In this document: piece by piece, positions 1,529-63,334 of the stretch
Numbering within the stretch: position 1 is the stretch's first letter
Layout of the letters: every line of letters starts with the position of its first letter
Origin: Candidatus Doriopsillibacter californiensis
Lineage (GTDB): Bacteria; Pseudomonadota; Gammaproteobacteria; Tethybacterales; Persebacteraceae
Length of the DNA stretch: 64,000 bases
Reading direction: 5' to 3'
NCBI GenBank assembly: GCA_030386295.1
Contig: JANQAO010000004.1
Coordinates: 11,131-75,130, forward strand
Translations under genes and position numbers: made by a program
The notes under the pieces: generated by a model
The model's input: only the letters and a program-made list of their open reading frames with translations
Told to the model about the DNA's origin: nothing
Databases searched by the model: none

Positions 1529-1559
1529 CTTTTTCGCGCCCAACCCATGGGCGGTACCG

Positions 1560-1595: not shown

Positions 1596-1642
1596 TTTCT
1601 GGGCGACAACAGGAGCCGCTCCCTATTTCATCGCGTAAGTCA

Positions 1643-46276: not shown

Positions 46277-46304
46277 TGCCGCTATTGCGGCATTCGGTTA
46301 TTTG
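46277..46304. terminator. bidirectional intrinsic terminator between convergent rpoC and proV-like genes
   Basis: The stem TGCCGC-TATT-GCGGCA (6 bp) is followed by ttcggttatttgtt. It overlaps the last codons of the minus-strand ATPase gene. Confidence 0.4.
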
Positions 46305-47341
46305 TTAGCGCTTAAATATAGGGAGATATTTTTTCCTGTGATGTGACCGCGGATATTGCCGTCGTTATCTACGACTTCAACACTGTCATATTCTCCACTC
46401 AGCAAGTGAGGTAAGAATAATTCAATATTAGTGTCTTCATGCGCCCTATAGGGGCGCTGCGCAGAAGTGCTAGATTCTTCTGCGTTGCTAAGGTTAGTCA
46501 TAATAGTTTTGGCGCGCAATACTTTGAGACGATTGACGTCTTTGACAAAATCGGCAACATATTTATCCGCTGGGCGGACGATGATGTCTTCAGGTTTGTC
46601 ATTTTGGACTAAATTACCATCCTTGAGAATGCTGATGCAATCACCTAATCGCAATGCTTCGTCTAAGTCGTGGGTAATAAAGACGATTGTTTTATGAAGT
46701 TCAGACTGTAATTGCAATAACATGTCTTGCATGTCTTTGCGAATCAGTGGGTCAAGAGCGCTGAAAGCTTCGTCCATGAGTAGTATGCCGGCGTCATTGC
46801 ACAGTGCGCGAGCCAATCCTACCCGTTGTTGCATTCCGCCGGATAGTTGTTGTGGATAATGTTTTTCAAAGCCGGACAGACCGACGCGGTCAATCCAAAT
46901 TTGGGCTTTTTTATGAGAATCGGAGATGCTGACGCCTTGAATTTGCAAGCCAAAAGATACGTTTTCAATAATAGTTTTGTGCGGTAACAGAGCGAATTTT
47001 TGAAAAACCATTGCTGTTTCACTACGGCGAAATTTCAGTAATTGTTTTTTATCTAGTGAGAGTATATCAACATCACCTATTATCAAACTGCCAGCAGTAG
47101 GGTTTATGAGGCGATTGATATGACGAATTAACGTTGATTTTCCAGATCCGGATAGTCCCATTACGACATGAATGGTTCGCTCATATATGTTCAAGTTAAT
47201 ATTATTTAACCCCAGCACATGATTATTTTTTTCTAGTAAATCTTCTTTGCTGAGGTCTTTTTTGACAAGTTTAACCATTTTTTCCGGAGACGCGCCAAAA
47301 ATTTTATATAGCGACTTAATGGCGATTTTAATATCAGCCAT
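46298..47341 (-). CDS. glycine betaine/proline-type ABC transporter ATP-binding protein (ProV/OpuAA-like, C-terminal CBS region)
   Basis: Walker A GLSGSGKST, the LSGGMQQRVGLARAL signature and Walker B LLMDEAFSALD. The start was chosen at MADIKIAIKSLY (8-nt overlap with the permease) rather than the 47413 extension. Confidence 0.8.
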   Translation of the reverse strand: MADIKIAIKSLYKIFGASPEKMVKLVKKDLSKEDLLEKNNHVLGLNNINLNIYERTIHVVMGLSGSGKSTLIRHINRLINPTAGSLIIGDVDILSLDKKQLLKFRRSETAMVFQKFALLPHKTIIENVSFGLQIQGVSISDSHKKAQIWIDRVGLSGFEKHYPQQLSGGMQQRVGLARALCNDAGILLMDEAFSALDPLIRKDMQDMLLQLQSELHKTIVFITHDLDEALRLGDCISILKDGNLVQNDKPEDIIVRPADKYVADFVKDVNRLKVLRAKTIMTNLSNAEESSTSAQRPYRAHEDTNIELFLPHLLSGEYDSVEVVDNDGNIRGHITGKNISLYLSANK

Positions 47342-48236
47342 TAACGGCCCCATACAAATGTTTTTGAATACGCTTGCCATAGGATTGGGAAACGCGGTCA
47401 AAAATAATCGCAAGTGCTACGATGGCAAGACCATTAAAAACACCCAAGGTAAAATACTGGTTGGTAATTGCTTTGAGCACTGGTTGTCCCAACCCTTTTA
47501 CACCGATCATGGATGCAATGACCACCATGGCTAGTGCCATCATAATAGTCTGGTTAATGCCAGCAAAAATAGTTGGTAGTGCTAATGGGAATTGCACTCG
47601 AGTTAGTTTCTGCCAGGTGTTGGCGCCGAAAGCATCCGCGGCCTCTAGTACTTCTTTGTCTACTAAGCGGATTCCGAGATTGGTTAATCGAATTACTGGC
47701 GGAATAGCGTAAATTATCACGGCAATAACTCCCGGAACTTTGCCGATGCCTAATAGCATGACAATGGGGATGAGATAGACAAAAGAGGGCATCGTTTGCA
47801 TAATATCTAGAACGGGCGTAATAGCGGATTGAGCCCGGTCGGATCGAGCCATCGCAATACCAATCGGGATGCCCAAAGAAACAGCCATGAATGTGCATAC
47901 GACAATGATGCTGATGGTGCGCATGGTATTGTCCCACATGCCAAAATAGCCGATAGCGAAAAAAGATAAAATAACTCCGACTACTACTTTCTTACTGTGG
48001 CTTCCTAAATAGGCTAATACACAGAAAACGATAATCAATATTGGCCAAGGAGTGGCAATTAGCAGTTTTTCAAAAAAAACCAAAAACTGCAATAAAGGAT
48101 CAAAAAAAGATTCAATTCCCTCACCATACTCGCGAGAGAAATTTTTATAACTGGCATCAATACTTTTTTTTATTGAGCGTAATAGCTCAACATCCATTTC
48201 TGGAAAATCAAAAAAAACGTTGTTTTTTTCAGCCAT
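47334..48236 (-). CDS. ABC transporter permease (ProW/OpuAB-like)
   Basis: 300 aa with 6 TM helices and the permease EAA-like loop. Confidence 0.8.
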   Translation of the reverse strand: MAEKNNVFFDFPEMDVELLRSIKKSIDASYKNFSREYGEGIESFFDPLLQFLVFFEKLLIATPWPILIIVFCVLAYLGSHSKKVVVGVILSFFAIGYFGMWDNTMRTISIIVVCTFMAVSLGIPIGIAMARSDRAQSAITPVLDIMQTMPSFVYLIPIVMLLGIGKVPGVIAVIIYAIPPVIRLTNLGIRLVDKEVLEAADAFGANTWQKLTRVQFPLALPTIFAGINQTIMMALAMVVIASMIGVKGLGQPVLKAITNQYFTLGVFNGLAIVALAIIFDRVSQSYGKRIQKHLYGAVNG

Positions 48237-48284
48237 AAGTATAAAAACCCGCCGATTATTGATTGGCGGGCTTTTAATAAAAAA

Positions 48285-49298
48285 TTAAAGAGCTGCTTTA
48301 ATATTGGTGGCAACTTTAGCAGATACCCACTTGGACCAAATATCTTCATTATTTTTTAGAAAATGTTCGGCTGCTTCTTCGCCTGTTGCTTGATTATCAT
48401 CCATCCATTTCAAAAATTTGTTCATGAAATCATTTTTAAAGCCGCGGTTGGCAAGATAAGCATAAGCTTCTGGGGATTTTCCTTTTAATTCGGTAGTGGT
48501 AACGGTGAATACTTCGGAAAGTGACCACGCGTTTGGTTTGGGGGCAGGGCAATCAAGGATTGTCGTGCATTTGTCCCATTCCTCTTTGTCATGTGATACT
48601 TCAAAATCTACTTTGACCATGTCGAATTTACCAAGAAAAGCTGTTGGTGCCCAGTAGTATCCAAACCAAGGTTCACCGCGCTCATAGGCTTTGGCTAGTG
48701 AGCCGTCCAATCCTGCTGAGGACCCCGGATCTCCGAGAACAAATCCTGCTTCTTCTAGATCAAAAGCATTGTATAAATTACCAGTCGTAATCTGGCAATT
48801 CCAACCAGCGGGGCAACCCATTAATAGACCTTGTGACTTGTCTTCGGGATTGGGGAACAGTTTAGCGTTTCTTTTAATTCCAGAAATGGTGGCCAATTCG
48901 GGATTTTTGTCTACCATATAGCGAGGTACCCAAAAACCTTCTTCACCACCTTCTAGCAACGAACGTCCGGCATATTCCAATCGTCCTTCAGATACTGATT
49001 TGTCCAGCGCTTCTTTGAGGGCGTTTACCCAGAGTTCTGGAGCTACATCAGGCTCACCTTTTTCTGCCATGGAGGTGCCTGTGGGCATTGTGTCGCCGGG
49101 GACCAGTTCCACTTCACAGCCTAATCCGGATTCTAAAATCATTTTATCCATGTGCGCCATAAAAGTTGCGGACGCCCAGTTCATGTCGGCAATTACGATT
49201 TTTCCACAAGCTGCGCTTGCGGGTAACACCGAAAATGTGGCAACCATAAGGATAGTTGCTAAAAAGATTTTATTTATGTAACCAATAAGGAATTTCAT
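48285..49298 (-). CDS. ABC transporter periplasmic substrate-binding protein (glycine betaine/choline ProX/OpuAC family)
   Basis: 337 aa with a signal peptide. Resembles ProX-type binding proteins (GCPAGWNC and aromatic-rich segments). It is first in the operon, so the order is X-W-V. Confidence 0.7.
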   Translation of the reverse strand: MKFLIGYINKIFLATILMVATFSVLPASAACGKIVIADMNWASATFMAHMDKMILESGLGCEVELVPGDTMPTGTSMAEKGEPDVAPELWVNALKEALDKSVSEGRLEYAGRSLLEGGEEGFWVPRYMVDKNPELATISGIKRNAKLFPNPEDKSQGLLMGCPAGWNCQITTGNLYNAFDLEEAGFVLGDPGSSAGLDGSLAKAYERGEPWFGYYWAPTAFLGKFDMVKVDFEVSHDKEEWDKCTTILDCPAPKPNAWSLSEVFTVTTTELKGKSPEAYAYLANRGFKNDFMNKFLKWMDDNQATGEEAAEHFLKNNEDIWSKWVSAKVATNIKAAL

Positions 49299-49733: not shown

Positions 49734-51284
<1,551 letters not shown>

Positions 51285-51632: not shown

Positions 51633-52460
51633 ATGAAAACGGCAGCGCTTATGCGGACAGTTATTGCCGCGCTTCTGCCGGTTGTGGTGGCAGCTATATA
51701 TGAACGCGGAGCTGGTGCATTGTTGCAGGTAGTGCTGGCGATTGGTGGTTGTTTGCTGTTTGAAACACTGTGTCTCGTTTGGCGGCGACAGCCGGTAACA
51801 GCAACCTTAGTGGACGGTACTGCTATTGTGGCAGGAATAATTATAGGTCTTTCATTGCCGCCACTGACGCCTTGGTATGTGTCGATTGCGGCAAGCGCGT
51901 TTGCTATGGTGCTGGCTAAACATTGCTACGGTGGGTTGGGCAATAATCCTTTCAATCCTGCTATGGCTGGTTATGCTTTAGCACTGGTGTCTTTTCCGGC
52001 AGACTTTGATGGCTGGGCAACGGCGTCGGTACTAAATGTTGTTTTTGGTGGTGCTGATGCCATTAGTAGTCCTACTCCGCTTACCGCCAGACAAATGGGT
52101 GTGGCAGTACCTGTAATAACGATTATTTTTCCACTATCGTGCATTATCGGAGGGGCTATTTTATTTCTGAGGCGAGCGGCAGATTGGCGGCTGACATCAG
52201 CTTTTTTACTGGGAGTGGTGCTGGTGGGCGGTGCAGATACGCTATTGGCGGGTGGTACGCTGCTGGCTGCATTTTTTGTGATTACTGACCCAGCTACTGC
52301 TGCTGTTACCGTACGTGGCAAGTGGTTATATGGATTAACGGCAGGTGCATTAGTTGTATGGCTACGCGCCGATGGACAGCATACCGATGGCATTGCTTTT
52401 GCCATTCTTATTTGTAACATGCTGGCACCACTTATGGATAGAATAGTGCGATGGCGCTGA
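51633..52460 (+). CDS. RnfD/NqrB-family membrane protein (shortened, 275 aa)
   Basis: Collinear with E. coli RsxD over VLKLRKQ..TLKDNSALLTG..SIPPLAPWW..AKQLYGGLGQNPFNPAM. The site equivalent to the covalent-FMN threonine is present, ISSPTPLT versus E. coli ISQATPLDT. It is about 75 aa shorter than canonical RnfD. Confidence 0.7.
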   Translation: MKTAALMRTVIAALLPVVVAAIYERGAGALLQVVLAIGGCLLFETLCLVWRRQPVTATLVDGTAIVAGIIIGLSLPPLTPWYVSIAASAFAMVLAKHCYGGLGNNPFNPAMAGYALALVSFPADFDGWATASVLNVVFGGADAISSPTPLTARQMGVAVPVITIIFPLSCIIGGAILFLRRAADWRLTSAFLLGVVLVGGADTLLAGGTLLAAFFVITDPATAAVTVRGKWLYGLTAGALVVWLRADGQHTDGIAFAILICNMLAPLMDRIVRWR

Positions 52461-52972
52461 AACACGCAGGAGCATTGGCAGTGTCGTTAGCGTTAGCATT
52501 AGCCACATTGTCGGGACTTCATGCTTTATGGGAAGATACCATTCATAACAATCGGTTAAATTATGAACAAGAATTAGTGAATGAGGCACTGCAGAACACG
52601 CCGTATGATAATGATATTATTTCGACTAGACAATCCATTCTCGTTGTTTTCCCGACGGCAACTATTAATGTCGTGTGGAAAGCCGTTTATAAAAATCAAT
52701 TGACGGCAGTGGTTGTCAAAGCTGTAGCACAGGGATACGGCGGTGATATTATTTTTATTATTGCTTATAATTTGCGAGGTGAGAGACTTGGTGCTCGTAT
52801 CGTCCAACATCGTGAAACTCCAGGTATTGGTGATTTTTTACATTCACGTGGTGGAGCTTTGCGTGCTATTGACGGTGTTAGTAGTGCGACTATTACTTCA
52901 AACGCTGTGGCTGATGCAGCAGCCGATATTGCAGATTGGGTGCGCGATAATACCGTCATGCTTTTTAACTAA
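52451..52972 (+). CDS. RnfG/NqrC-family FMN-binding protein
   Basis: 173 aa with an N-terminal TM anchor. It has RETPGIGD and DGVSSATITSNAV, which correspond to the TPGLGD and S(G/S)AT covalent-FMN motifs of RnfG. It overlaps the RnfD-like stop (ATGGCGCTGA). Confidence 0.65.
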   Translation: MALKHAGALAVSLALALATLSGLHALWEDTIHNNRLNYEQELVNEALQNTPYDNDIISTRQSILVVFPTATINVVWKAVYKNQLTAVVVKAVAQGYGGDIIFIIAYNLRGERLGARIVQHRETPGIGDFLHSRGGALRAIDGVSSATITSNAVADAAADIADWVRDNTVMLFN

Positions 52973-52984
52973 TCGGATTTTTTC

Positions 52985-54256
52985 ATGGAATTAATTAACT
53001 CTTATTATGAGGCTAGTGTATCCCGACCGCCTTCGGAGCCGATGCTAACGGGTGAAGTGCATGCTGATGTATGCGTTATTGGTGGCGGTTTTACCGGTCT
53101 TTCCTGTGCATTGGAATTAGCGCAGGCTGGTCGGAAAGTTATATTGTTAGAGGCCGAACGGGTAGGGTGGGGCGCATCGGGGCGTAATGGCGGACAATGT
53201 ATTTGTGGTTATTCCACCGACGCGCTTGCCGGTCCAGCTCGGCAAGCTGGTGTGACGGAGAAATATCTTTTTGATTTGACGCGTGAGGCAATTTCCTTGT
53301 TGCACGCTCGTAGGCAACAATATTCTATTGACTGTGACTGGCGTAGTGGCTATTTGCTGGCAGCTATTCACGCCCGCCATTGCCGAGAGTTAGAAGAGCA
53401 CGCCAACACATTGACTAATCGTTATCACTATCCGTTGCGCTTGCTGGATTTGCCGGAAACACGTGCCGCTATTGCCAGCCGCCGTTATTGTGGTGCGATG
53501 GTGGATGAACAAAGCGGCCACTTGCATCCGCTCAAATATGTGTTGGGTCTTTCCAATGCGGCTCTTGCCTCCGGTGTGCGCCTGCACGAACAATCGCCAG
53601 CTTTATCGGTCGTTGATATGGGTAACAATATTGAAGTCAAAACAGCTGCAGGTATGGTGTGCTGCAGGCAAGTAGTTTTTGCTGGCAATGCTTATTTGGA
53701 AATCGCCCCTCGTTTGCGCACGCGTGTTATGCCGGCGAGTACGTGTATTGGTGCAACAGCACCATTAGGAGCGGCAGCAGCAGAAAATTTGATTGCCAAT
53801 CAACGTGCCGTATGTGATATGAATTTTGTCATTGACTATTTTCGCTGTAGTGCAGATACTCGTCTGCTATTCGGCGGACGGGTAGATTATGCTAATCGTA
53901 CTCCTTCCGATTTGGCAGGCTGCATTCGCCAGCGTATGGAAAAGGTGTTTCCACAATTAATTGGAGAAAAATTGGATTACGTGTGGGGAGGAGCTGTTGC
54001 CATTACCATTAATCGTTTTCCCGATATCGGGCGACAAGGCAACAATGTTTATTATGCGCAAGGTTTTTCAGGGCATGGTGTGGCATTGTCGGGGTTTGCT
54101 GGGAAAATTCTAGCTGACGCTATTGTGGGGGATACGGAAAAGTTGGACGTGTTCAGCCGCATTCGTCACCGGCCCTTTCCCGGAGGCAACACATTTCGCA
54201 CGCCATTGCTAGTTTTGGCTATGCTGTACTATCAGTTGCGCGATTTGTTTGGATGA
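52985..54256 (+). CDS. FAD-dependent oxidoreductase (DAO family; PuuB / glycine-oxidase-like)
   Basis: 423 aa. The N-terminus has the VCVIGGGFTGLSCALELAQAGRKVILLEAERVGWGASGRNGG dinucleotide-binding fold typical of D-amino-acid-oxidase-family enzymes. Confidence 0.7.
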   Translation: MELINSYYEASVSRPPSEPMLTGEVHADVCVIGGGFTGLSCALELAQAGRKVILLEAERVGWGASGRNGGQCICGYSTDALAGPARQAGVTEKYLFDLTREAISLLHARRQQYSIDCDWRSGYLLAAIHARHCRELEEHANTLTNRYHYPLRLLDLPETRAAIASRRYCGAMVDEQSGHLHPLKYVLGLSNAALASGVRLHEQSPALSVVDMGNNIEVKTAAGMVCCRQVVFAGNAYLEIAPRLRTRVMPASTCIGATAPLGAAAAENLIANQRAVCDMNFVIDYFRCSADTRLLFGGRVDYANRTPSDLAGCIRQRMEKVFPQLIGEKLDYVWGGAVAITINRFPDIGRQGNNVYYAQGFSGHGVALSGFAGKILADAIVGDTEKLDVFSRIRHRPFPGGNTFRTPLLVLAMLYYQLRDLFG

Positions 54257-55314
54257 ACGGTATGCTTATTGTCGGTGGTGGGCCAGTGGGCATGACACTA
54301 GCGTTGGCGCGTCCTCAAACTGCAATGTTATTGTCCTTGCCGGCACAAAAATCTAGCAGAGTTTATGCTTTGGGAGGTAAAGCATCCGCTTTTTTGCAAC
54401 GGATAGGCGCACTTCCTATAGGCAATCCAGTTCGGCGCTTTTTGCTAACAGCAGATAATGAACAAATAAATATTCATGCTTCTGCAGTTGGTGTAGATGT
54501 GCTGTGCCATATTGTAAGAGAATCGGCGTTGTTGGAATGCCTGCAAGCGCGGATATTAGATGAAAAGGTGAACTGTCGCACGCTGTCTAAGGATTCTCGT
54601 ATTATTGATTATCAAGTTTCTTTAGAAACTGGACGATTATTCTTGAGTGATGGCGGGCATTATGAGACGGAACTGCTTATTGCCGCCGACGGTGCTCGCT
54701 CGGCAGTAGCTACTGCTGCATCAGTCGGTGCGGCGGTACACTCTTTTGAGCAGCGCGCGTTGACCATGGTATTACGTGCGCCTTTGGATGATGATTGTGC
54801 AGCGCAATGGTTTTCTCAGCGTAATGTGCTAGCGTTATTACCACTGGGTGGTGGCTTGTTTTCACTGGTATGGTCATTGTCAGAACTTCAAGTACACACG
54901 CTGCTGGCCAAAGGCAGCAAAGCGGTAGTGGCAGCGGCGGCGGCACACATTAATATGCCTTTGGAAGCGGTAGATGCGACAATGTTTTCTTTCCCGTTGT
55001 TTTCGATGCGTCGTGCTGTGCGTGTGACTCAACGGTTGGCATTTGTCGGCAATGCCGCGCGTGTTATTCACCCATTGGCGGGGCAAGGATTAAATTTGGG
55101 ATTGTTGGATGCCGAATTGTTATGGCAATGCTTAGATAAAAATAAAAATGTTGCCGAAGCGTTGGCGGTGTACGCTGAAGGTAATTGGCAAGGAGGATGG
55201 TGGAATCTGCTCACCGCATCTTTTAATGAATCAAGATGGTTGCCAGCGGTAGCTTTGAAAATGGGTAAACAAAAATTTTTGAGACAGTTGGCCGTAGCGA
55301 TTTCAAATAGTTAA
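54253..55314 (+). CDS. FAD-dependent monooxygenase of the UbiH/UbiF/UbiI (Coq6) family
   Basis: 353 aa. It starts LIVGGGPVGMTLAL. It has the AADGARSAV and GNAARVIHPLAGQGLNLGLLDA signature segments of UbiH-family hydroxylases. It overlaps the preceding gene by 4 nt. Confidence 0.65.
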   Translation: MNGMLIVGGGPVGMTLALARPQTAMLLSLPAQKSSRVYALGGKASAFLQRIGALPIGNPVRRFLLTADNEQINIHASAVGVDVLCHIVRESALLECLQARILDEKVNCRTLSKDSRIIDYQVSLETGRLFLSDGGHYETELLIAADGARSAVATAASVGAAVHSFEQRALTMVLRAPLDDDCAAQWFSQRNVLALLPLGGGLFSLVWSLSELQVHTLLAKGSKAVVAAAAAHINMPLEAVDATMFSFPLFSMRRAVRVTQRLAFVGNAARVIHPLAGQGLNLGLLDAELLWQCLDKNKNVAEALAVYAEGNWQGGWWNLLTASFNESRWLPAVALKMGKQKFLRQLAVAISNS

Positions 55315-55326: not shown

Positions 55327-58300
55327 TTATTGACTACCTTCTTGCTTGGCAATATTAAGGTGTCGTTGCGCTTTTTCAGGTTCTTCCACTGAGATATATA
55401 TGCCAGACAGCATTTTGTGAACTGATACGTTGCGTGGCTCAATTTCCAACGCTTGATTGAGTATACTGACTGCTTCAATAGCGCGGTTACGCTGCACTTC
55501 AATAGCAGCAATTCTTAAATAACTCTCAATTTGTTCAGGGTACTTTTCTATGATTTTCAGGTAAGCGTCAATGGATGCATCCATATTGGACAGCCGATGC
55601 TGAGAGAAAGCCAAGAGCCTCAAATAATTTAGGTCTTCTGGCGCTTTGGCGGGAAGTAACAATTCTAACTGTTCTACAACGCCCCTATAGTCTTTAATGC
55701 TAAATAATGCTCTTGCATAATTGTGGCGTACGATGTTTTCGCTGGACAAATTTAATTTTCCGATTTCTAGTGCTTTTGCATAGTCTTCCGCTGCGCGTAC
55801 ATAATTTTCGATGGCCATATAAAACCCAGCGCGGTTTTGGTAGGTACGTGCCGGATTTTTGGTACGAATGGTTTCGTGAGAAAGCAACTGTGTATACAAA
55901 TCAATGGCTTTATTAAAATCTCTTTCTTCCACCGCTTGGTCAATGCTTTTTATAAATTCACTCTCATCAGTGTAGTTTACAAAAATAGCCTCTGCACTCT
56001 GATTTTTCTTTGATAATTTTTCTGCGGTGTCGCGAGGCAGACGTTGTTCAAGAACCGCAATGCGAGCTTCTATGCGCTCGGCATTGTTCGCGTCATTGCT
56101 TTGCTTATAGACATTTAATAGTGCCCGTAATATAGAAGTTGAGGCATTCTGTTTTTTACGCATATTTTTCAAGTGGTTAATGGCATGTTTGCTGTCGCCA
56201 ACTGCAGCTAACGCTAAACAGGCATCAACTTGCGCAATAACGTGGTGGTGCTTTTCTGCTTCTTGTAAGATAACTCGTATTTCTTCAGCGTTAATATTAT
56301 CGGCGGCGGATGCTGATTTGAGGCGTGCGTCAAGCGCACGTAGTGCAATATCATCAACGACACTGCCCGTTTTGGCCGCTTCTGCAATAAAAGGATAAAA
56401 ATATGAGGTTCTTTCTATAAAATTGTAATCAAGATAAATGTGTGCGAAATCATTGGCGATTTCGGCTTTACGCTGTGCGGTGGGAGCTTTTTCTATAGCT
56501 AATTTTGCTTGTTCCATCCCTGAGGTAGAGGAGGGAGTATTTCGAACATCAAGAAGAGCTTTGGCATGCAACCCTATTGATTCATCCTTAAGCTGAAAAG
56601 AAGATACTTGAAGTAATTTATATGTTTTTTGGCGACTACCATTTTTTGCATATGTTAGTAACAGGCGGTTCAAAATAGCCTCATCAAAGGGAAACTTGCG
56701 ATACCCTTGTTCTAAGGTGTCTATCATAAGGAGTTGTTGTTGACGAAGCTCATACAAGTCAGCAAGAGTATCTACCACACGAGGTTCCTCTGGTAACAAT
56801 ATTTGCAATCTCCGCGTTAGTGTAGCGGCTTCAGCGTAATTTCCAGAAAGTTTTTCCAATACGATAGCGGCGTTAAGTAGCAATGACGATTCGGGATTGT
56901 TACTAAGTTCATCAAGCAACTCAACGCGTGTTGTTTCTGGTTGCCGTTGTGCGCTAATATCAAGTAAGAAAGATAGCGCTAACAGTTCGTTATTGAGGAG
57001 GTTGCGTTTTTGTGCTTGTTTTATTAATTCGGCGGCTTTTTTTTCATTACCGGCATACATAAGTAAAAAGACATAATTATTTAATGCGACAGTATTAGTT
57101 GGATCAGTGTCTGTCGCTTTTTGATACATTGCCAGGATATCATCATTTGGTAAATTTCCCTCCTGTCGCGACCACGCAGCCCCCGCAGCATAGGCGAAAG
57201 AATACGTGCTGGGCGTACGCTGGTTAATTTCTTCATAGTGTTTTTGAGCGGATTGAGTATCTCCATCTGCCATGTCCAAATAGGCAATAATGTACTGCGA
57301 CAGTAAAGATTGCGATGCGACAGTTGATTCAACAATAATTTTACGGGCTTGTTTGTGATTTTTATCAATAACGTAAGATAACGCTTGCAAGGCGACAATG
57401 TCGGAGGCCGGCGTGCTATTTTCTTGTTGAGCCAATGCTTCTACGTTTAGCGGTATACCGTAATAATTGTTAAACCCTTCTGTGTTGACGGCAAAACCAA
57501 GATTTTTGTCTATTGGCATTGGTTTTTTTAATTTGTCAAATGGCAACGGGAATTTTTCGCCGATTTTGACGTCTGTATTTTGCAAATAAAAATAATAGGA
57601 ATGGAGTAATAGATCGTTTAATGTTTGCGTTTCTTCTACTGATAGTTCTGTGTTGGATAATGTGTCAACGGTTTTTTCTAGATAATCGCGTGCGATGACA
57701 GGGTTGTTTTCTAAAAGGGCAAAAATTCCGAGCAATGCATATACGGGTGGATAAGAGCTATATTTGCTTTTTTCCAATAGTGACATGGCTTTTTGAGGTG
57801 CGTTACCATAGTTTGCTGCAGCGTTGATATAACTGGCTTTTGGTAATTCGGAAAATTTTTGAGATAACGGTCTCAGTGTTTTTTCTGCCTGCATTATGTT
57901 TCCAGACATTAGTTGCGCGCGTGCCAGCAGAATAATTTCTTCTTCGGATGGATTGGCAAATTCTGCGTATTGGGTCAGCGATTCGAGTGCTACTGAGTAA
58001 TTTTTTTCTACTAGAGCAGCCTTTCCTTCTTTTAGAAAATTATTGGCACGTAGGTTAAACCAAGTGTAGCCCCCGGAAACTAAAACTAATACGACAGCAA
58101 TAGCAATGATGATATTTTTGTTTTGGATAAAAACAAGAGTCTTTTGATGAAGGGAGAAAAAATCAGAAGGCGGCGGGAAATCCTCTGGCACCTCTGGTGT
58201 ATTTTTCTGCTCATACCTTGGTGCTATTGGCTCAAGTGTGGTGGGTATTGATGACGAAGGGGTAGCAGTAGTTTCTGAGGAAACTAAGCTATTTTCCTGT

Positions 58301-58335
58301 TTCTCAAGCTTCTTTGTTTTAAGATAGATAGACAT
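55327..58335 (-). CDS. 1002-aa single-pass membrane-anchored tetratricopeptide-repeat (TPR) protein, paralog B
   Basis: A K/S/T/P-rich N-terminal segment of about 70 aa, one TM helix (IIIAIAVVLVLVSGGYTWF), and about 900 aa of TPR-like repeats running to the C-terminus. There is no catalytic or beta-barrel domain. Confidence 0.7.
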   Translation of the reverse strand: MSIYLKTKKLEKQENSLVSSETTATPSSSIPTTLEPIAPRYEQKNTPEVPEDFPPPSDFFSLHQKTLVFIQNKNIIIAIAVVLVLVSGGYTWFNLRANNFLKEGKAALVEKNYSVALESLTQYAEFANPSEEEIILLARAQLMSGNIMQAEKTLRPLSQKFSELPKASYINAAANYGNAPQKAMSLLEKSKYSSYPPVYALLGIFALLENNPVIARDYLEKTVDTLSNTELSVEETQTLNDLLLHSYYFYLQNTDVKIGEKFPLPFDKLKKPMPIDKNLGFAVNTEGFNNYYGIPLNVEALAQQENSTPASDIVALQALSYVIDKNHKQARKIIVESTVASQSLLSQYIIAYLDMADGDTQSAQKHYEEINQRTPSTYSFAYAAGAAWSRQEGNLPNDDILAMYQKATDTDPTNTVALNNYVFLLMYAGNEKKAAELIKQAQKRNLLNNELLALSFLLDISAQRQPETTRVELLDELSNNPESSLLLNAAIVLEKLSGNYAEAATLTRRLQILLPEEPRVVDTLADLYELRQQQLLMIDTLEQGYRKFPFDEAILNRLLLTYAKNGSRQKTYKLLQVSSFQLKDESIGLHAKALLDVRNTPSSTSGMEQAKLAIEKAPTAQRKAEIANDFAHIYLDYNFIERTSYFYPFIAEAAKTGSVVDDIALRALDARLKSASAADNINAEEIRVILQEAEKHHHVIAQVDACLALAAVGDSKHAINHLKNMRKKQNASTSILRALLNVYKQSNDANNAERIEARIAVLEQRLPRDTAEKLSKKNQSAEAIFVNYTDESEFIKSIDQAVEERDFNKAIDLYTQLLSHETIRTKNPARTYQNRAGFYMAIENYVRAAEDYAKALEIGKLNLSSENIVRHNYARALFSIKDYRGVVEQLELLLPAKAPEDLNYLRLLAFSQHRLSNMDASIDAYLKIIEKYPEQIESYLRIAAIEVQRNRAIEAVSILNQALEIEPRNVSVHKMLSGIYISVEEPEKAQRHLNIAKQEGSQ

Positions 58336-58337
58336 TT

Positions 58338-61229
58338 TTAACTCCCGTCAATTAGTTGGGCCAACACTGCATTATTTTCCTTTGCAGCTAACATATCAAA
58401 GGCGGTTTGTTTTTTGTATAATGCTTTGTAAATGGGTGCGTACAGCGGCGTAGCGCGCGCAGCCTGGCGCAATACCGCAATGCTACTTGAGGTATCTTTT
58501 GCTCTGGAATGAGCGTCAGCAAGTGAAATATAAGAGGGGATGTCAAGAGGAAAAAATGCGATGGTTTCCTGCAAGTAAGTAATAGCCGCATCAATATCTT
58601 CGTTGCTGACTAAGGCATCACCGGCTAAGCGGCGGTATAGTGGTGTTTTAGGGAATGTTTCCGCTAATTGCTGATAGATAGCAAACGCCTGTTCGTATTT
58701 ATTTAGAAACATAAAATTCTTAGCTAGATAAAAAAGCGCATCATTTTCATTTTCCACTTTTAGGGCAAGGGCTTGTTTAATATCAGCGACGCTGTCGGCA
58801 TATTTCCGTAGCGCCAGAAAAAAAGTGCCGCGCTGAAAATGCAATAATGCCTTTTGTTCATTTGTTTTCGTTGCGGCCAATAGTTGCTGGAACCCGGCTA
58901 TTACTGTGCTGGAGTTACTATCGTTTTGTAGTGCGGCAGCAATGGATTGAGACAATTTCGCATCAGGTGGGGACAGTACACGATAAGATTCAACGGACAT
59001 TTTTTCACCCTTAAGTGCATGACGGATGTTATCAATAGCGGCGGTGGTTTTTGCGGCTAATTCATGCAAATTTTGCGAGTCCTGAAGTGTGGCAACGATT
59101 TCTAGTAAATTAACATCCGCTGGTTTCCAAACGGTGGCGGCTTGTAACATGGACAAAGCTTCAGCAGGATTACCCAAAGCTACCATGGCCAAGCCAGCGT
59201 GATATTGTGTGTCATACAGCAGCGATTCGGATGCTGCTTTTTTGGCTAGCAAGTATGCGGCTGCAGGATCATTTTCTGTTTGTAGCTGTGCTAGCATGGC
59301 GCGCCCGGCGGGCGGCAACGAATCAGCGGCAGATAGTAATTCACGCAATAGAGTCGTATTTGTGTCAAATAGCACCGGAGCTGCGCGCATCGCTGCTTCA
59401 GCTTGATTTGATGAATTTTCAGTAGCAGTAATGCCTTGTTCAAATGCCGCTAATGCCCCAATTTTGTTCTTTTCTTGATGGAGGATAAGTGCTTCTAGAA
59501 CGCTGGATTGTAGTAAGTAACTTTCTTGCTCTGACAGTGTGTTGAGATGTTCTTTAGCGCCATTAATATCGCCAACTGCCAGCGCTACCAAACCTAGTTG
59601 ATAGTCAACTCGCCCGTCTTTATGTGTGCGTTTTTGAGCTTCTTGTAATACATTGCGCGCGCGCATGTAAAGTCCAGTATCATATAGCAAATCAACATAG
59701 TGCAACAGCGAGTCAAAATTGTTTGCGAGGTCTTGCTCTGTTGGTTGTAACAAGTATATAGCGGTGTCGTAATCGCCATTGGCAATACTATGAGCGGCAA
59801 GCGCGTTACGTTTGCTGAGGTCGTGTTCGGGCACTGCCTGCGCCAGAGAAGAAATGTCTTCTTGGCCATTTTTTATTTCTAACAGTAGTTTTAGCAAATG
59901 TGTTTGGTCTGCAGTAATGTTGGCAATTGTTTTCACATCCGCTAGAGCGCGACCCCAATTGCCAAGCATCATGTGTAATGCGGCGCGATTACTACGGGCG
60001 ATGGCGTTGTCATGCTCTAGATTAATCGCTTGGTCTAACAGCGCTAGTGCGCTTATTGCGCCCGCAATCGTGGGTTGTGAGCTAAAAATGCTGTTGGCGG
60101 CATTGATAAATCCCGTTGCTGATTTGGGAAACGTCTTCGTTAAAGATTGAAATGCTATCGCTGCTTCCTCAGTTTTTCCTATCAACGCTAAGCGCAATCC
60201 GACCAAACTGGCCGCAGCGGGAGAATTTTTTAATGTGCTTTCTGAAAACTGCGATATTTCTACCTGTGCTTCATTAAAATCTTCTTCTTCAAGAAGTAGT
60301 CGCGTGTAGTGTACGGCAATAATATTGCTGGGCGTTAATTTTTCGGTAACATTACTATCTCGCAACGACTCGTAAGCATTAATATAAAAATCAGCACCTA
60401 TGGCGACCCCAAAAGCATTTTTCAATCGCCAGCGCAACACGGTATCTATATCGGGCGAAGGGGTGCCGTAATCACGCTTAAATTTGAGATTAGCCTCAAC
60501 ACGCTTATGTACAGCATAAATGGCAGCAACGTCAGTGTCAGGATCGCTACGCAAGACATCGTCAGCCTGTAAGAAATCTTCACGAGCTTGTCGAACTTCA
60601 CCTTGTTCAGCTAGCATAATCCCACGCAATAACCGCCCGCCAGCATGTCCCGGATTCATTACAATCAGTGTATTTAGCGCTTCCAGTGCTTTGTTAGAAG
60701 GTGCTACGAGCAATGCGTAATTAAAGAGAAAGTCCGGATTGGTTGAGTAATCCTGAGTTTGAGTAATTTTCTCCATTGCCGAAACGGCATAGCCATGGTT
60801 GCCAGTTTTTATAGCAGCCCGCGCTGCGTAAAATAAAGCTTCGGTGTCGTCCGAGTTATCGGCAAGATACTTTTGAAATTGCCCAAGCGCGGTAGCGTAA
60901 TCTCCTTTGTCAAAAGTGCTGAAGGCGTCGCTGCGTTGAATAAGCGATTGAATATTAGGTAATATAATGACCGCCAATAGCAATATAACACCGCTGGCAA
61001 TGGTAATTGTTTTGTTTTTGCTTATTTTGTTTAGTGAAGGGAGCGACGTCGCTATTGTTTTTATTTTGCTTTTTTGTATTTTGTCTTTAATAGATTGAAC
61101 AAAATTCTCAATTAGCGCAATAAAATCAACGCGAGCTTTAACTTCCGGAATATCTGGTTGAACTGTACGCGCCAAATGACTCAAATCTGCGCGTTTGTCT
61201 TTGTCAGATGATACTTTTTCTTCAACCAT
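58338..61229 (-). CDS. 963-aa single-pass membrane-anchored TPR protein, paralog A
   Basis: A charged N-terminal segment of about 75 aa, one TM helix (ITIASGVILLLAVIILP), then TPR repeats throughout. Its stop is 2 nt from the start of paralog B, so the two are translationally coupled. Confidence 0.7.
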   Translation of the reverse strand: MVEEKVSSDKDKRADLSHLARTVQPDIPEVKARVDFIALIENFVQSIKDKIQKSKIKTIATSLPSLNKISKNKTITIASGVILLLAVIILPNIQSLIQRSDAFSTFDKGDYATALGQFQKYLADNSDDTEALFYAARAAIKTGNHGYAVSAMEKITQTQDYSTNPDFLFNYALLVAPSNKALEALNTLIVMNPGHAGGRLLRGIMLAEQGEVRQAREDFLQADDVLRSDPDTDVAAIYAVHKRVEANLKFKRDYGTPSPDIDTVLRWRLKNAFGVAIGADFYINAYESLRDSNVTEKLTPSNIIAVHYTRLLLEEEDFNEAQVEISQFSESTLKNSPAAASLVGLRLALIGKTEEAAIAFQSLTKTFPKSATGFINAANSIFSSQPTIAGAISALALLDQAINLEHDNAIARSNRAALHMMLGNWGRALADVKTIANITADQTHLLKLLLEIKNGQEDISSLAQAVPEHDLSKRNALAAHSIANGDYDTAIYLLQPTEQDLANNFDSLLHYVDLLYDTGLYMRARNVLQEAQKRTHKDGRVDYQLGLVALAVGDINGAKEHLNTLSEQESYLLQSSVLEALILHQEKNKIGALAAFEQGITATENSSNQAEAAMRAAPVLFDTNTTLLRELLSAADSLPPAGRAMLAQLQTENDPAAAYLLAKKAASESLLYDTQYHAGLAMVALGNPAEALSMLQAATVWKPADVNLLEIVATLQDSQNLHELAAKTTAAIDNIRHALKGEKMSVESYRVLSPPDAKLSQSIAAALQNDSNSSTVIAGFQQLLAATKTNEQKALLHFQRGTFFLALRKYADSVADIKQALALKVENENDALFYLAKNFMFLNKYEQAFAIYQQLAETFPKTPLYRRLAGDALVSNEDIDAAITYLQETIAFFPLDIPSYISLADAHSRAKDTSSSIAVLRQAARATPLYAPIYKALYKKQTAFDMLAAKENNAVLAQLIDGS

Positions 61230-61338
61230 ATGCTATTTCTCTTATCACATAATAGGAAGTCGTTTTTATGACATCTCGCCGTAAATGCCAAAAAAATTAC
61301 TTATAGTTCCCTTAAACTTTGATATTATACTACTAGAA

Positions 61339-62655
61339 TTAATCACACACTTTGATTGATGCACTAGGGGCGTTCTTTTTGCATGTTTTGGTTAAATTTA
61401 CAACAATTAGTTCAGCTAGTAATTCCAGCCAGTGCATTGTCGGTAAGCCGCCGCTAGTCAAAAAAAGCTGACAGCCGATATTGGCCGTAACCGTACGTTG
61501 ACCATCGCAGGCGGTCAAGTTGCGTATTTTATCTGCGCGCAGCCGCTTTGCTCGGCTTGGCTGTAGTAAAGAGTAAGTGCCGGCAGAGCCGCAGCACTGG
61601 GTTTTATTTGTCGGTAGCGTAATGTCGTAGCCTGCGGCGCTTAATAATGCTTCCACGCGTCCGCCCAAATCTAGGGCATTTTGCATGGTGCATGGTGAAT
61701 GATAAGCGATTTTTTTATTTGTTGGTGGGTATAGTTTTGTTTGCAATACGGGCCATTCTTGTTCCAGTAGTTCAATAATATTGAGTGTTTTTTTAGTTAC
61801 CAGTGCTGCTTCAGGAGTATTGAGTTGATGTGCGTATTCTCGTACCATAACATCGCAGCCGCTGGCGGTCATGATTACCGCTTCTGCTTCTCCTGAACGC
61901 AACAGTGTTGCCCAAGCTGCTACGTTGCGGCGCATGTCCGCTTGTGCTGCTTCTTGCTGATTTAGATGAAATCGCAAGGCACCACAGCAACCAGTATTTG
62001 GTGGATTGATTACGCCAATACCGATGGCGCCAAGCACGTCCACTAGCGCGGCGTGAGTTTGCGCAGACAAGGCACTTTCGGCACAGCCGGCGAGCATGAT
62101 GACGTTGCGTGAATGTCGCACTGGGTGTGGCAGGCGGCGGCGTTCAAAGTGGGCGCGCCAGCTAGTGGGCAACGCAAATCGTCCCATTGTTGCTATTGCA
62201 GCCATCATGTTTAGCAGGCGAGGATTGCTCAAAACGGTACCGACTAACCGTCGTAGCCATACGGATGCTTGAGTTCGTGCGGGTTCGGCAGCGTGACGGC
62301 CAATGTCGAGTAATTCACCATAACGCACACCGGATGGGCAGGCGGTTTCGCACGCACGGCAAGTTAGGCAACGGTCTAAATGTTTTAGTGTTATTGCCGA
62401 CGGTGCCCCTTGTGCTAGCATTTCGTTGATGAGGTAAATTCGTCCGCGTGGGCTGTCGCGCTCATCGCCGTCTAGAGCATATGTGGGGCAAACCGCACAG
62501 CACATGCCGCAGTGTACGCAGCTGCGAATAATATCGCGTGCTTGTCCGGCGGCTTTCTCATCAATAAAATCGGGTGAAATATTACTTTGCACGTTTTTTG
62601 CTGAATGGGTGCTAGCGCATGGCGGTTGAGGTGTTCCGCACGTGCTTACATCCAA
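61339..62655 (-). CDS. glycolate-oxidase-type iron-sulfur subunit (GlcF-like; 2x 4Fe-4S plus 2x CCG domains)
   Basis: Collinear with E. coli GlcF, including [43 protein letters not shown] and C-terminal CCG motifs. No glcD or glcE sits next to it. Confidence 0.75.
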
Positions 62656-63272
62656 TAGCTGCTACGCGTCATCAACCGACCAAACAAGTGCATTGCTCCT
62701 TTAACTGGAGGTGGAAGGTCAACGCCACCCATTGATATCGCGTTGCTGGCATGTTGCTGTTCGTCAACATCCATTTGTTCTACAATACGGCGGCTTTTTT
62801 CGTCATTTGCCGGCAATTTTTGCAAATGACTTTGCAAATGTGCTGATACTTGCTGTTCAGTTTCGGCCACAAACCCCAACGATACTTTATCCGACACTAG
62901 AGCGGCGGCGGCGCCAATGGCAAAAGAACCACCGTACCACAGTGGATTGAGGAAGCTTTGCCGCCCGCCTAATTCATGAATACGTTGTGCTGTCCACGCC
63001 AAGTGATCAATTTCTTCGTCGGCGGCTTCTTGTAGCGCATTCGTTATTTTCTGATCACGAGAAAATAACGCCTGTCCTTGATATAACGCCTGTGCGCAAA
63101 CTTCACCACAATGATTGACGCGCATTAATGCCGCTGCGTGGCGTCGCTCGGCATCACTCATATCTGTTTCCGATGCTTCATCCGCTGGCGTTGGGCGCTT
63201 CGCGGTAATTGGTGTAAAAATTGTTTTTAGGCCGTTGCCCACAATGTCAAATAAGCGATTTTTTAATGTCAT
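62646..63272 (-). CDS. coq7: ubiquinone biosynthesis di-iron hydroxylase Coq7 (bacterial CLK-1 homolog)
   Basis: It has the [27 protein letters not shown] and DEQQH carboxylate-bridged di-iron ligand motifs. Collinear with Pseudomonas Coq7. The start was set at [11 protein letters not shown]. Its 3' end overlaps the glcF-like start by 10 nt. Confidence 0.75.
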
Positions 63273-63334
63273 GCGTTTGTCACCATTGAAAGTTTGCAAT
63301 TAAGATAAAGAATCCTATCATGAATTTCCCGTCG

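Follow-up and report, generated by a model that had tools for sequence, protein, structure and literature searches.

The 64-kb stretch of DNA analysed here (the window) comes from Candidatus Doriopsillibacter californiensis, a nudibranch mantle symbiont found in sea-slug skin, and it raises the question of what two giant repeat proteins encoded one directly after the other are for. The organism belongs to the Tethybacterales, which are widespread uncultured sponge symbionts with small genomes. A preliminary description, made from the letters of the window, had reported a tandem pair of giant open reading frames of 963 and 1002 aa separated by 2 nt, and our reading of the locus confirmed it. 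Both genes and all of their features given below lie on the minus strand. tprA (58338..61229) is a 963-aa ORF of the A-type ortholog group and tprB (55327..58335) is a 1002-aa ORF of the B-type ortholog group. Each begins with ATG, both are intact, and together they occupy 5.9 kb.

The junction (58336..58346) was read directly from the sequence as GAC-GGG-AGT-TAA-AA-ATG. The TAA stop codon of tprA (58338-58340) is followed by a 2-nt spacer (58336-58337) and the tprB start codon, and the GGGAG Shine-Dalgarno sequence of tprB (58342-58346) sits within the final tprA codons, 6 nt ahead of the ATG. We infer translational coupling of tprA and tprB from this spacing alone. At the other seven loci with the pair, the A-B gaps were 3-41 nt and also carried Shine-Dalgarno-like purine runs. 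In the 109-nt intergenic region 5' of tprA (61230..61338, minus strand), an exact TATAAT hexamer at 61324-61329 marks a candidate promoter of the pair's own. A consensus scan for promoters and terminators gave nothing above the shuffled expectation and called no promoter in 61230..61338.

The family was characterized by an exhaustive profile search, which recovered 32 proteins at E<=1e-30. Among these, twenty-six further clusters were full-length tprA-type proteins, all of them from uncultured bacteria, with 25-37% identity across the full length. For tprB orthologs the full-length identity was 22-31%. The identity between tprA and tprB was 17-23%, and the two could be aligned end to end in the multiple alignment only. 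The earlier view of the two proteins as paralogs stands as regards their common architecture, with the qualification that the relationship is distant. Bit scores were 66-514 for A-A comparisons and 99-412 for B-B comparisons, but only 25-94 for A-B comparisons, and by these sequence scores A and B form two distinct ortholog groups.

The A-then-B pair was found in related uncultured marine symbionts at eight distinct loci (the window, L001, L002, L003, L004/L005, L006, L007 and L010), with the order kept in 8/8 across a GC range of 37-63%. Two frames 2 nt apart with a common architecture could in principle stem from a single gene broken up by a sequencing error, as the preliminary description had itself allowed, or by recent pseudogenisation. 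The comparative data refuted this reading, whose probability we regard as negligible. tprB has its own tail and TM helix, each gene has its own tail and TM helix in 8/8 pair loci, and A and B are full-length with their own stop and start in these eight independent assemblies.

Two more distant genomes (L008 and L009) hold one copy at the syntenic site, and because of this we take the duplication to be old and vertically inherited. The single-copy protein P0063 aligned end to end with both profiles (E 2e-33 for A and 3e-38 for B). The flanking enzymes were 37-73% identical where A was 25-37% and B 22-31% identical, and both A and B stayed collinear. Such rapid divergence, together with a GC content below that of the flanks, could equally be expected of a protein under weak constraint. 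A 1017-aa ORF in L004 (98-3151) was considered as a third paralog and rejected, since it encodes an unrelated multi-TM protein.

The GC content was 44.3% (GC3 38.7%) for tprA and 40.6% (GC3 35.3%) for tprB, compared with 46.8% for the window and about 49% GC and 44% GC3 for typical genes, in agreement with the AT-richness noted at the outset. Both genes were GC-poorer than their flanks in 6/7 genomes, and B was always below A, so we read the low GC as a trait of the family. A foreign origin or recent horizontal transfer behind the low GC was rejected on the grounds of this offset in 6/7 genomes and of the old synteny.

To Pfam and NCBIfam profiles, tprA and tprB matched TPR-type families only. 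The best Pfam scores were TPR_19 at 88.7 bits (cut-off 25), TPR_16 at 74.1 and TPR_14 at 56.9 for tprA, and TPR_19 at 66.5 bits and TPR_14 at 41.2 for tprB. Both AF2 models showed all-alpha hairpin solenoids that start near residue 100 and run to the C-terminus, with about 50 antiparallel helices each. Profile scores and AF2 helices together show that tprA and tprB belong to the TPR superfamily, whose hallmark is a tandem array of helix-turn-helix repeats of about 34 aa. Each solenoid spans about 870-910 aa, or about 25 helical hairpins, and is broken once by a beta-containing insert of about 50 aa. The description of both proteins as all-TPR thus holds for the solenoid up to the C-terminus and fails at a conserved two-strand insert of about 50 aa in each (A 247-299, B 254-297). 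The rest of the proposed plan was borne out by profiles and models: a long TPR region follows the single TM helix, and enzyme, LysM, barrel and secretion domains are absent. Profile, PDB-sequence and fold searches of tprA and tprB found no catalytic, porin, lipoprotein or lipid-anchor feature, and a non-TPR catalytic domain, which would have overturned the first description, was likewise absent from the profile, PDB-sequence and Foldseek results.

Foldseek against the PDB matched both models solely to long TPR proteins that act as scaffolds of multi-subunit complexes (IFT-A chains, SKI complex, Ctr9/Paf1, Naa15 and APC/C) and to one bacterial scaffold. The best of these, the IFT-A chains, the SKI complex, Ctr9 and Naa15, are TPR solenoids of 900-1300 aa that organise multi-subunit complexes; unlike tprA and tprB, these eukaryotic scaffolds lack a membrane anchor and reside in the cytosol or nucleus. 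With TM-scores of 0.15-0.3 and 11-14% identity, the match is a generic solenoid likeness, and nothing in these values points to a shared ancestry closer than the TPR superfamily. The sole bacterial match among the best 50 in both searches was the Campylobacter flagellar periplasmic scaffold 9hmf_L, which at rank 30/35 and a TM-score of 0.18 did no better than unrelated long TPR proteins.

The predicted cytoplasmic N-terminal tail of tprA (residues 1-70, 61020..61229) is mostly disordered, with pLDDT below 50 at residues 1-14, 19-36 and 53-70 of the AF2 model. Alignment conservation picked out a tail motif, ADLSH(L/F)xR (residues 14-21, 61167..61190), which was invariant among the four closest tprA orthologs, and 'LSHFxR' was the consensus in 28 sequences. 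The JGI gene call for tprA begins at residue 85 and so misses the N-terminal tail. Kyte-Doolittle hydrophobicity averaged over 19 residues (KD19) placed the single TM helix at about residues 72-93 (60951..61016). The KD19 maximum was 2.48 at 75-93, no other segment exceeded 1.6, and in the AF2 model the TM helix is part of a continuous helix, H71-107. Directly past it lies the juxtamembrane motif PNIQSLIQRSDAFST (60915..60959), whose family consensus NIPxQIxRSxAF occupies this place in almost every member. This motif starts the best-conserved part of tprA, residues 91-230 in the 28-sequence alignment profile.

TPR block 1 of tprA (residues 108-246, 60492..60908; AF2 helices H111-H246) holds the conserved motifs GGRLLRG and RAREDFLxAD, with conservation maxima at 193-228. 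The non-TPR insert that follows (residues 247-299, 60333..60491) has a strand-helix-strand arrangement, assigned by DSSP as E253-255, H263-273 and E285-287. Its residues N284 and Y286 were invariant in A and B proteins in a four-sequence A+B alignment, and the single-copy homolog P0063 also has a G[YF]xNxY motif. TPR block 2 (residues 300-962, 58344..60332) continues with about 40 AF2 helices to the C-terminus, contains the best tprA Pfam stretches, and has no terminal barrel or globular domain in the AF2 model (pLDDT 88.7, pTM 0.79).

The tprB model was built from only 6 sequences and reached a pLDDT of 77.8 and a pTM of 0.52. The N-terminal tail (residues 1-71, 58123..58335) is rich in Pro, Ser and Thr and disordered, with pLDDT below 50 throughout, and among B orthologs the tail ahead of the TM helix varied from 13 to 109 aa. 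The single TM helix (about residues 73-93, 58057..58119) lies in the sole hydrophobic segment (66-93), where KD19 reached 2.3 at both 68-86 and 75-93; elsewhere the values were <=1.6. One hydrophobic segment in each protein agrees with the tail of about 70 aa and the single TM helix originally predicted. The tprB insert (residues 254-297, 57445..57576) is the counterpart of that in tprA, with two short strands (E258-261 and E291-294), low pLDDT at 265-287 and the motif PLPF...GFNNYY, of which the B consensus includes PLPF and GFxNxY. TPR block 2 (residues 298-1000, 55336..57444) is formed by AF2 helices H298-H1000. Conservation in tprB peaked in the C-terminal 200 aa, with maxima at 801-863 and 962-998. 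The single Cys of tprB is remote from the N-terminus, within the conserved stretch 700-714, and tprA has 0 Cys.

The orientation of both proteins in the membrane was assessed from flanking charges and cysteine content. In 28 tprA-type proteins, the 15 residues flanking the TM helix contained on average 3.9 K+R on the N-side and 1.6 on the C-side (Wilcoxon p=5e-6), and the tprB-type proteins gave 3.4 and 1.3, respectively (p=0.016). The charge bias gave an N-in orientation in 28/28 A proteins. Cysteine made up 0.02-0.07% of residues in the family (7 Cys per about 28,000 residues in the A family), compared with 1.41% in the other proteins of the window and 0.87% in generic TPR matches, and was thus 20-70 times rarer than in the other window proteins. 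Because of the flanking charges and the near-absence of cysteine, tprA and tprB are predicted to be type II inner-membrane proteins with the N-terminus in and the TPR region out. The periplasmic placement of the repeats, at first proposed for this one pair, is backed family-wide by the same two properties.

The window neighbours are COQ7, a GlcF-like gene, FAD_binding_3, DAO, FMN_bind, an RnfD-like gene, 16S rRNA and a betaine ABC transporter. All recurrent neighbours were metabolic, with COQ7 and the GlcF-like gene upstream and the convergent FAD_binding_3/DAO/FMN_bind/RnfD-like genes downstream, and the downstream neighbour was retained even at single-copy loci. The neighbours were on the opposite strand or 69-384 nt away, and they were different in L004, L006 and L010. 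No envelope-machine gene consistently adjoined the pair across the 10 loci. Membership in a recognised operon, named in the preliminary description as grounds for dropping its reading, was not seen, as neither the 64-kb window nor loci L001-L010 had a pel, bcs, pga, pilus or T4SS/secretion operon. Exosortase/PEP-CTERM, EPS, synthase and Wza-type genes were absent from the 64-kb window and from the 10-kb flanks of L001-L010, and flagellar genes were absent from the window and the loci inspected.

Our favoured explanation, held with slightly better than even confidence, is that this conserved two-gene unit of ancient paralogs encodes an inner-membrane-anchored periplasmic scaffold, probably a heteromeric one. 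tprA and tprB would be co-produced from one transcript, and A and B would assemble as a hetero-oligomer whose forerunner was a homo-oligomer formed by the single-copy ancestor, with the common insert (invariant N284/Y286) as a candidate A-B contact. Envelope or periplasmic proteins whose genes lie elsewhere would use the assembly as a periplasmic docking platform. Conservation of A is strongest near the membrane, at NIPxQIxRSxAF, repeats 1-4 and the cytoplasmic ADLSHFxR, and suggests that A may be coupled to an inner-membrane or cytoplasmic partner. Conservation at the distal C-terminal repeats of B suggests that this protein may bind clients away from the membrane. Of the two roles first put forward, scaffold and host-interaction protein, the scaffold is the better one, although no client machine was found among the loci inspected. 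A bolder form of the idea, which we think rather unlikely, is that the pair and its single-copy form are the core of an unrecognised envelope structure specific to Tethybacterales-like symbionts of marine invertebrates, namely a heteromeric periplasmic lattice or strut. Two solenoids of about 25 repeats would then connect outer-envelope components with a cytoplasmic partner held through the ADLSHFxR tail of A, and the genes would be kept in 1.3-2.1-Mb genomes since the symbiotic cell envelope depends on the lattice.

The scaffold reading has to be weighed against what long TPR proteins do elsewhere. The closest architectural analogue of tprA and tprB is PflB of the Campylobacter/Helicobacter flagellar motor, in which a cytoplasmic N-terminal tail, a single TM helix and a very long TPR region in the periplasm follow the same plan. 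In H. pylori PflB the tail is 61 aa, the TM helix covers 62-83 and the periplasmic TPR region 141-844, and PflB forms a structural scaffold alongside a second large TPR protein, PflA (PMC11392913). This parallel, together with the presence of 9hmf_L in both fold searches, would favour a stator- or secretin-type periplasmic cage of a flagellar or pilus motor. We consider such a cage very improbable, as the 9hmf_L match ranked low, no specific sequence kinship was seen (PflA and PflB were absent among NCBIfam or PDB sequence matches) and no flagellar or pilus gene adjoins the pair at any locus inspected. PflA has a signal peptide and a beta-sandwich domain and is no TM-anchored paralog of PflB, and tprA and tprB exceed PflB by about 150 aa, have no unstructured post-TM linker and carry the beta insert. 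A part in exopolysaccharide or PEP-CTERM-type export like that of PrsT or of the TPR parts of PelB, BcsC, PgaA or AlgK, with the rest of the system elsewhere in the genome, was suggested by PrsT/PEP_TPR_lipo (TIGR02917), likewise an all-TPR, extracytoplasmic protein of about 900 aa and the best curated NCBIfam family for both proteins. PrsT-like proteins were the commonest generic match to the B profile, many JGI 'PEP-CTERM system TPR-repeat lipoprotein' entries were drawn at 100-170 bits, and Pfam gave a weak Wzy_C_2 match. The PrsT scores (78.9 bits for A, 74.8 for B) are, however, 4-fold under the cut-off of 312.2, and the BLAST coverage of PrsT-like matches was merely 3-28% of the query. 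PrsT is a single lipoprotein, whereas tprA and tprB are a paralog pair with a signal-anchor behind a tail of about 70 aa, without a lipobox Cys, and the synthase, exosortase, EPS and Wza-type genes of such a system are missing from the window and the L001-L010 flanks. BcsC, PgaA, PelB and NfrA share a long periplasmic TPR scaffold region but end in an outer-membrane porin, while tprA and tprB are helical to the last residue, are anchored in the inner membrane and lack a synthase operon. BcsC scored 20.9 against a cut-off of 858 and PgaA 8 against 366.65, and with no C-terminal beta-barrel in the models the unlikeness to PelB and BcsC noted earlier was upheld. A role in such export is distinctly unlikely.

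The remaining readings concern where the repeats are exposed. Eukaryotic-like TPR effectors, surface-exposed or released, could bind proteins of the nudibranch or sponge host and influence recognition or phagocytosis. The carrier is a host-associated symbiont, the proteins diverge fast, and their best fold matches are scaffolds from eukaryotes. TPR domains also count as one class of the eukaryotic-like proteins enriched in sponge symbionts, a Persebacteraceae MAG among them (PMC12625764). Host interaction, the second of the roles first proposed, is nevertheless disfavoured, and we rate it as unlikely. The signal-anchor is uncleaved and stands behind a tail of 40-120 aa, the tail and juxtamembrane motifs are conserved, and no cleavable signal peptide, lipobox, autotransporter, secretion-system neighbour or other surface export route was found. 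Inheritance is vertical and syntenic, with single-copy outgroups and without a patchy or HGT-like distribution, and the eukaryotic similarity is that of a generic solenoid only. An inverted topology, with the tail outside and the TPR region in the cytoplasm, where it might organise ubiquinone-biosynthesis enzymes (COQ7, UbiH-like), would give a meaning to the recurrent COQ7 upstream and the convergent FAD_binding_3 hydroxylase-like gene downstream, the latter found even at single-copy loci. The positive-inside asymmetry is opposite to this in 28/28 A proteins, the cysteine depletion speaks against a cytoplasmic location, signal-less translocation of a charged N-terminal tail of 40-120 aa is unlikely, and the position and variability of the neighbours given above do not fit. 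We hold the inverted arrangement to be highly unlikely.

Smaller anchored TPR proteins were also compared with the pair. In YfgM, CcmI/CycH, HemY and LapB, too, TPR repeats follow a membrane anchor at the N-terminus, and in YfgM and CcmI the periplasmic repeats hold client proteins. These four are 200-450 aa long, compared with about 1000 aa for tprA and tprB, and LapB has cytoplasmic TPRs ending in a Cys-rich rubredoxin, which tprA and tprB (0-1 Cys) do not have. HemY_N scored 10.6 bits against a cut-off of 31, TPR_CcmH_CycH 17.9 against 42, PilW (TIGR02521) 22-27 against 154 and NlpI (NF008391) 29.7 against 250. Scores below cut-off and size together support the original distinction from PilF and HemY.

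The retention of the pair side by side across GC contents of 37-63% and at about 20-35% identity suggests that it is important to the biology of the clade. With the family recognised, localisation and interaction work on the symbiont envelope gains a concrete target. TPR-domain counts used in these symbionts as a proxy for eukaryotic-like host-interaction proteins (PMC12625764) would be too high by about 50 repeats, contributed by two proteins that are probably confined to the periplasm. If the oligomerisation is true, the single-copy and tandem distribution offers a clean natural transition from homo- to hetero-oligomer.

tprA and tprB are a real, previously undescribed family of ordinary protein type, detectable only through the exhaustive profile search and not through word-index protein searches. 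A word-index search with the single tprA sequence returned itself and one homolog only, the single tprB sequence returned weak generic TPR matches only, and the B profile returned generic PrsT-like TPR proteins and no B orthologs. Scans of GTDB genomes gave none in the first and one MAG in the second, the Doriopsillibacter genome being seemingly outside that collection, and a scan of JGI metagenomes for the family gave no match. In a back-translated motif scan, whose information content was too low, the inter-motif gap varied between 11 and 12 residues. Existing annotations of family members read 'hypothetical', 'NlpI' or 'PilF'; the JGI names 'NlpI' and 'PilF', given to fragments, are unsupported, with scores far below the PilW and NlpI cut-offs.

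The two genes lie on the minus strand, tprA at 58338..61229 (963 aa) and tprB at 55327..58335 (1002 aa), each an open reading frame with an ATG start. Reading the coding strand across the junction gave GAC GGG AGT TAA AA ATG, with a spacer of 2 nt and a GGGAG Shine-Dalgarno sequence for tprB within the final tprA codons, 6 nt before the tprB start. The observation as a whole is real and far beyond chance, and the 2-nt spacing noted in the preliminary description was confirmed. The same was true of the greater AT-richness of both genes: GC content was 44.3% for tprA and 40.6% for tprB, compared with 46.8% for the window and ~49% for most genes. In 6 of 7 genomes both genes had a lower GC than their flanks, and B was below A in every case; because the offset recurs, low GC is a property of the genes themselves. 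Public gene calls mis-handle both. In the JGI model, tprA begins only at residue 85, within the transmembrane (TM) helix, giving an 879-aa ‘lipoprotein NlpI’, and a 528-aa tprB fragment carries the name ‘Tfp pilus assembly protein PilF’. Both names were rejected, as both fail the family cut-offs.

The family was nearly overlooked by word-index searches and was brought out by an exhaustive profile search over 1.84 billion representatives, which returned 32 proteins at E<=1e-30. These included 26 further full-length clusters (930-1046 aa) with a single end-to-end match and a TM at residues 40-135; below ~100 bits, all that was left were generic multi-stretch TPR proteins. All named members are called ‘hypothetical protein’ and come from uncultured Proteobacteria MAGs. 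As far as sampled, the genes occur only in Tethybacterales-like uncultured marine symbionts. Exact sequence matches to EF-Tu, GlcF and Coq7 of the window identified its source as Candidatus Doriopsillibacter californiensis Df01 (Ca. Persebacteraceae, Ca. [quoted passage not shown] We found no literature account of either gene: TPR and tetratricopeptide terms led to nothing about these genes in the Doriopsillibacter and Tethybacterales papers, and a 2021 Tethybacterales study explicitly left hypothetical genes out.

Genomic context was obtained for ten further loci carrying homologs (L001-L010, with L004 and L005 treated as one). An A-type gene (tprA ortholog) was followed by a B-type gene (tprB ortholog) in L001 (969 and 1015 aa, 1.87-Mb contig), L002 (1001 and 1013 aa, Logan contig), L003 (1017 and 1019 aa, ENA contig), L004/L005 (994 and 930 aa, 2.05-Mb contig), L006 (1023 and 1067 aa, Logan contig), L007 (981 and 1035 aa, GTDB ‘MAG_seacave_91’) and L010 (1008 and 999 aa, 1.68-Mb contig). 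A single gene was present in L008 (1051 aa, 1.58-Mb contig) and L009 (1025 aa, 1.42-Mb contig), and both of these loci kept the convergent FAD_binding_3 neighbour. In the pair loci A and B were co-oriented and separated by 3-41 nt, and the GC of these loci ranged from 37 to 63%.

All-against-all BLAST split the proteins into two ortholog groups, with scores of 66-514 bits for A-A, 99-412 for B-B and only 25-94 for A-B. The single protein of L008 (P0063) aligned end to end to the profiles of both groups (E 2e-33 for A, 3e-38 for B). The simplest history is that one ancestral gene was duplicated in tandem before the clade containing Doriopsillibacter radiated and that both copies have been retained since. 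Such a history rules out recent horizontal acquisition of the pair. It also rules out a single gene split by sequencing error, the artefact against which the preliminary description had cautioned; with two ortholog groups from an old duplication, that explanation is refuted and has practically no probability left. Between these genomes identity was 37-73% for the flanking enzymes, 25-37% for A and 22-31% for B, so the TPR genes evolve about twice as fast as their flanks, yet they remain collinear and full-length. One 176-kb ENA contig does carry a tprA ortholog (P0020 cluster) as two ORFs, P0169 (399 aa) and P0170 (570 aa), whose lengths sum to full length; the gene is intact at 969 aa in sister assemblies, and the split reflects a frameshift error or, alternatively, a pseudogene in that strain.

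Each protein has one hydrophobic segment, peaking at residues 75-93 in tprA (Kyte-Doolittle 19-residue mean 2.48) and 66-93 in tprB (~2.3), and no other 19-residue stretch exceeded 1.6 in either. AlphaFold2, run on a 28-sequence family alignment, modelled tprA (pLDDT 88.7, pTM 0.79) as a disordered tail (residues 1-70), one long helix forming the TM and a short stalk (71-107), and ~50 antiparallel helices, the last ending at residue 962. The sole non-TPR element was an insert at 247-299, with strands at 253-255 and 285-287 and a helix at 263-273. The tprB model (6 sequences, pLDDT 77.8) showed the same plan with its insert at 254-297. A four-sequence A+B alignment ran end to end, and N284 and Y286 of the insert were invariant. 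The all-TPR architecture first described thus stood as to tail, single TM and TPR helices to the C-terminal end, and fell short in the one non-TPR insert of each protein.

Pfam and NCBIfam matches were to TPR-type families only, and profile searches of PDB sequences gave generic TPR matches. Foldseek against PDB returned long TPR scaffolds only (IFT-A, SKI complex chains, Ctr9, Naa15 and APC/C subunits) at TM-scores of 0.15-0.3 and 11-14% identity; the sole bacterial entry among the best 50 was 9hmf_L, a Campylobacter flagellar periplasmic scaffold. None of these searches or models revealed a catalytic or barrel domain in either protein.

The charge and composition of the family supported the periplasmic placement of the repeats originally predicted. 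Lys+Arg averaged 3.9 in the 15 residues before the TM and 1.6 in the 15 after it in A-type proteins (n=28, Wilcoxon p=5e-6), and 3.4 and 1.3 in B-type proteins (n=9, p=0.016). Cysteine made up 0.02% of residues in the A family and 0.07% in the B family, compared with 1.41% in other window proteins and 0.87% in generic TPR proteins from the same search. At 40-120 aa, the tail before the TM exceeds the length of a cleavable signal peptide. The A tail bears a conserved ADLSHFxR motif, and a conserved NIPxQIxRSxAF motif directly follows the TM, where an AxA cleavage site would be and none is found. Combined, these features point to an uncleaved N-in, C-out anchor, and the sequence statistics support TPR solenoids that are periplasmic and tethered to the inner membrane.

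The gene neighbourhood did not identify a client, either in the window or in L001-L010. The rest of the 64-kb window is housekeeping (uppP, prfB, eno, acn, a ubiH-like gene, pepP, ksgA, pdxA, surA, argH, dacB, purN/M, hda, ubiE, gshA, tuf, nusG, rpl genes and rpoB/C); it also includes a betaine ABC transporter and a 16S rRNA gene that stands alone. Operons for polysaccharide, pilus, flagellar or secretion functions were absent from the window. The genes that recur beside the pair are ubiquinone-related or encode flavoproteins, and they lie on the opposite strand or beyond sizeable gaps; neighbours differ in L004, L006 and L010.

tprA and tprB belong to the TPR superfamily and fail tests of membership for PrsT, BcsC/PgaA/PelB, PilW, NlpI, HemY and CcmI, in line with the unlikeness to PelB, BcsC, PilF and HemY remarked on earlier. 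Judged from sequence, they would work most like the anchored periplasmic TPR proteins of the PflB and YfgM/CcmI types, but differ in their size (~1000 aa), conserved paralog pairing and family-specific insert and motifs. Neither Pfam nor NCBIfam has a model specific to these proteins. They are a genuine, conserved, undescribed family; as putative repeat scaffolds they would interest a specialist but not astonish.

We weighed other roles for the pair. Host-directed eukaryotic-like proteins would suit a symbiotic lifestyle, and TPR counts serve as markers of such proteins in Persebacteraceae (PMC12625764); however, the membrane anchor, conserved tail and vertical synteny oppose this reading, and the host-interaction role proposed in the preliminary description is unlikely. 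A part in polysaccharide or PEP-CTERM export is also improbable: PrsT was the top curated match, but its score lay 4-fold below the cut-off, lipobox and barrel are missing, and no such operon occurs in the window or in the parts of L001-L010 that were read. The protein plan is the same as that of PflB (PMC11392913), yet specific homology to PflA/PflB is absent and no flagellar genes lie in the window or the other loci, making a PflA/PflB-like motor cage very improbable. Equally remote is the opposite topology, in which the proteins would act in the cytoplasm near the ubiquinone enzymes; the charge bias and cysteine depletion contradict it.

An inner-membrane-anchored, heteromeric periplasmic docking scaffold is, on balance, probable, with higher confidence in architecture and topology and lower confidence in heteromerisation. 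The description of the pair had been accurate, and of its two proposals the scaffold is better supported than host interaction. The two-gene unit, conserved order, signal-anchor and solenoid plan and shared insert are shown by sequences and models, as is the tprB ribosome-binding site that overlaps the end of tprA. Conservation was highest at residues 91-230 in A, beside the membrane, and at 800-1000 in B, at the distal end. The two genes would be co-expressed, and their products may form a hetero-oligomer succeeding the homo-oligomer of the single-copy ancestor. Within this putative docking scaffold, the tail and juxtamembrane region of A could link it to a partner in the membrane or the cytoplasm, while a distal surface of B could bind clients.

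Several further observations concern the flanks. Upstream of tprA on the same strand (61339..63299, minus), coq7 (217 aa) shares 10 nt with the beginning of the next gene, which encodes a GlcF-like Fe-S/CCG-domain protein (438 aa) and is followed by a 109-nt gap. Neither glcD nor glcE lies beside this second gene, and its product may be an orphan GlcF-like protein tied to ubiquinone hydroxylation. L001 has the same order, and in L008 an AMP-binding enzyme comes after the GlcF-like gene. Downstream, four tightly packed plus-strand genes with overlapping starts and stops (51633..55314) converge on the pair. Their products are a 275-aa RnfD/NqrB-like membrane protein, a 173-aa FMN_bind protein, a DAO-type flavoprotein of 423 aa and a short FAD_binding_3 protein of 353 aa. 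The cluster, whole or in part, also converges on the TPR genes of L001, L003, L004 and L007. To our knowledge, an RnfD and RnfG-like pair without other Rnf/Nqr subunits is not a described system. About 7 kb upstream of the pair in the 2.05-Mb relative, L004 carries a 1017-aa ORF (98..3151, plus) with no Pfam match and several hydrophobic helices toward its N-terminus; it is unrelated to tprA/tprB by BLAST.

The complete 16S rRNA gene (49739..51284, minus) lies between the glycine-betaine ABC transporter operon (46298..49298) and the RnfD-like gene. The whole window yielded no 23S, 5S or spacer tRNA, so the rRNA operon is unlinked, a frequent arrangement in the reduced genomes of symbionts. The housekeeping region could be annotated in full except for three sizeable ORFs that lacked a Pfam match at E<=1e-6, at 1547..3163 (plus, 538 aa), 14561..15736 (minus, 391 aa) and 28432..28920 (plus, 162 aa). 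A second FAD_binding_3 gene, UbiH-like (382 aa), lies at 11470..12618 (minus) and ubiE at 29585..30367 (plus); with coq7 and the short FAD_binding_3 gene, at least four ubiquinone-pathway-type genes are thus scattered over the 64 kb.
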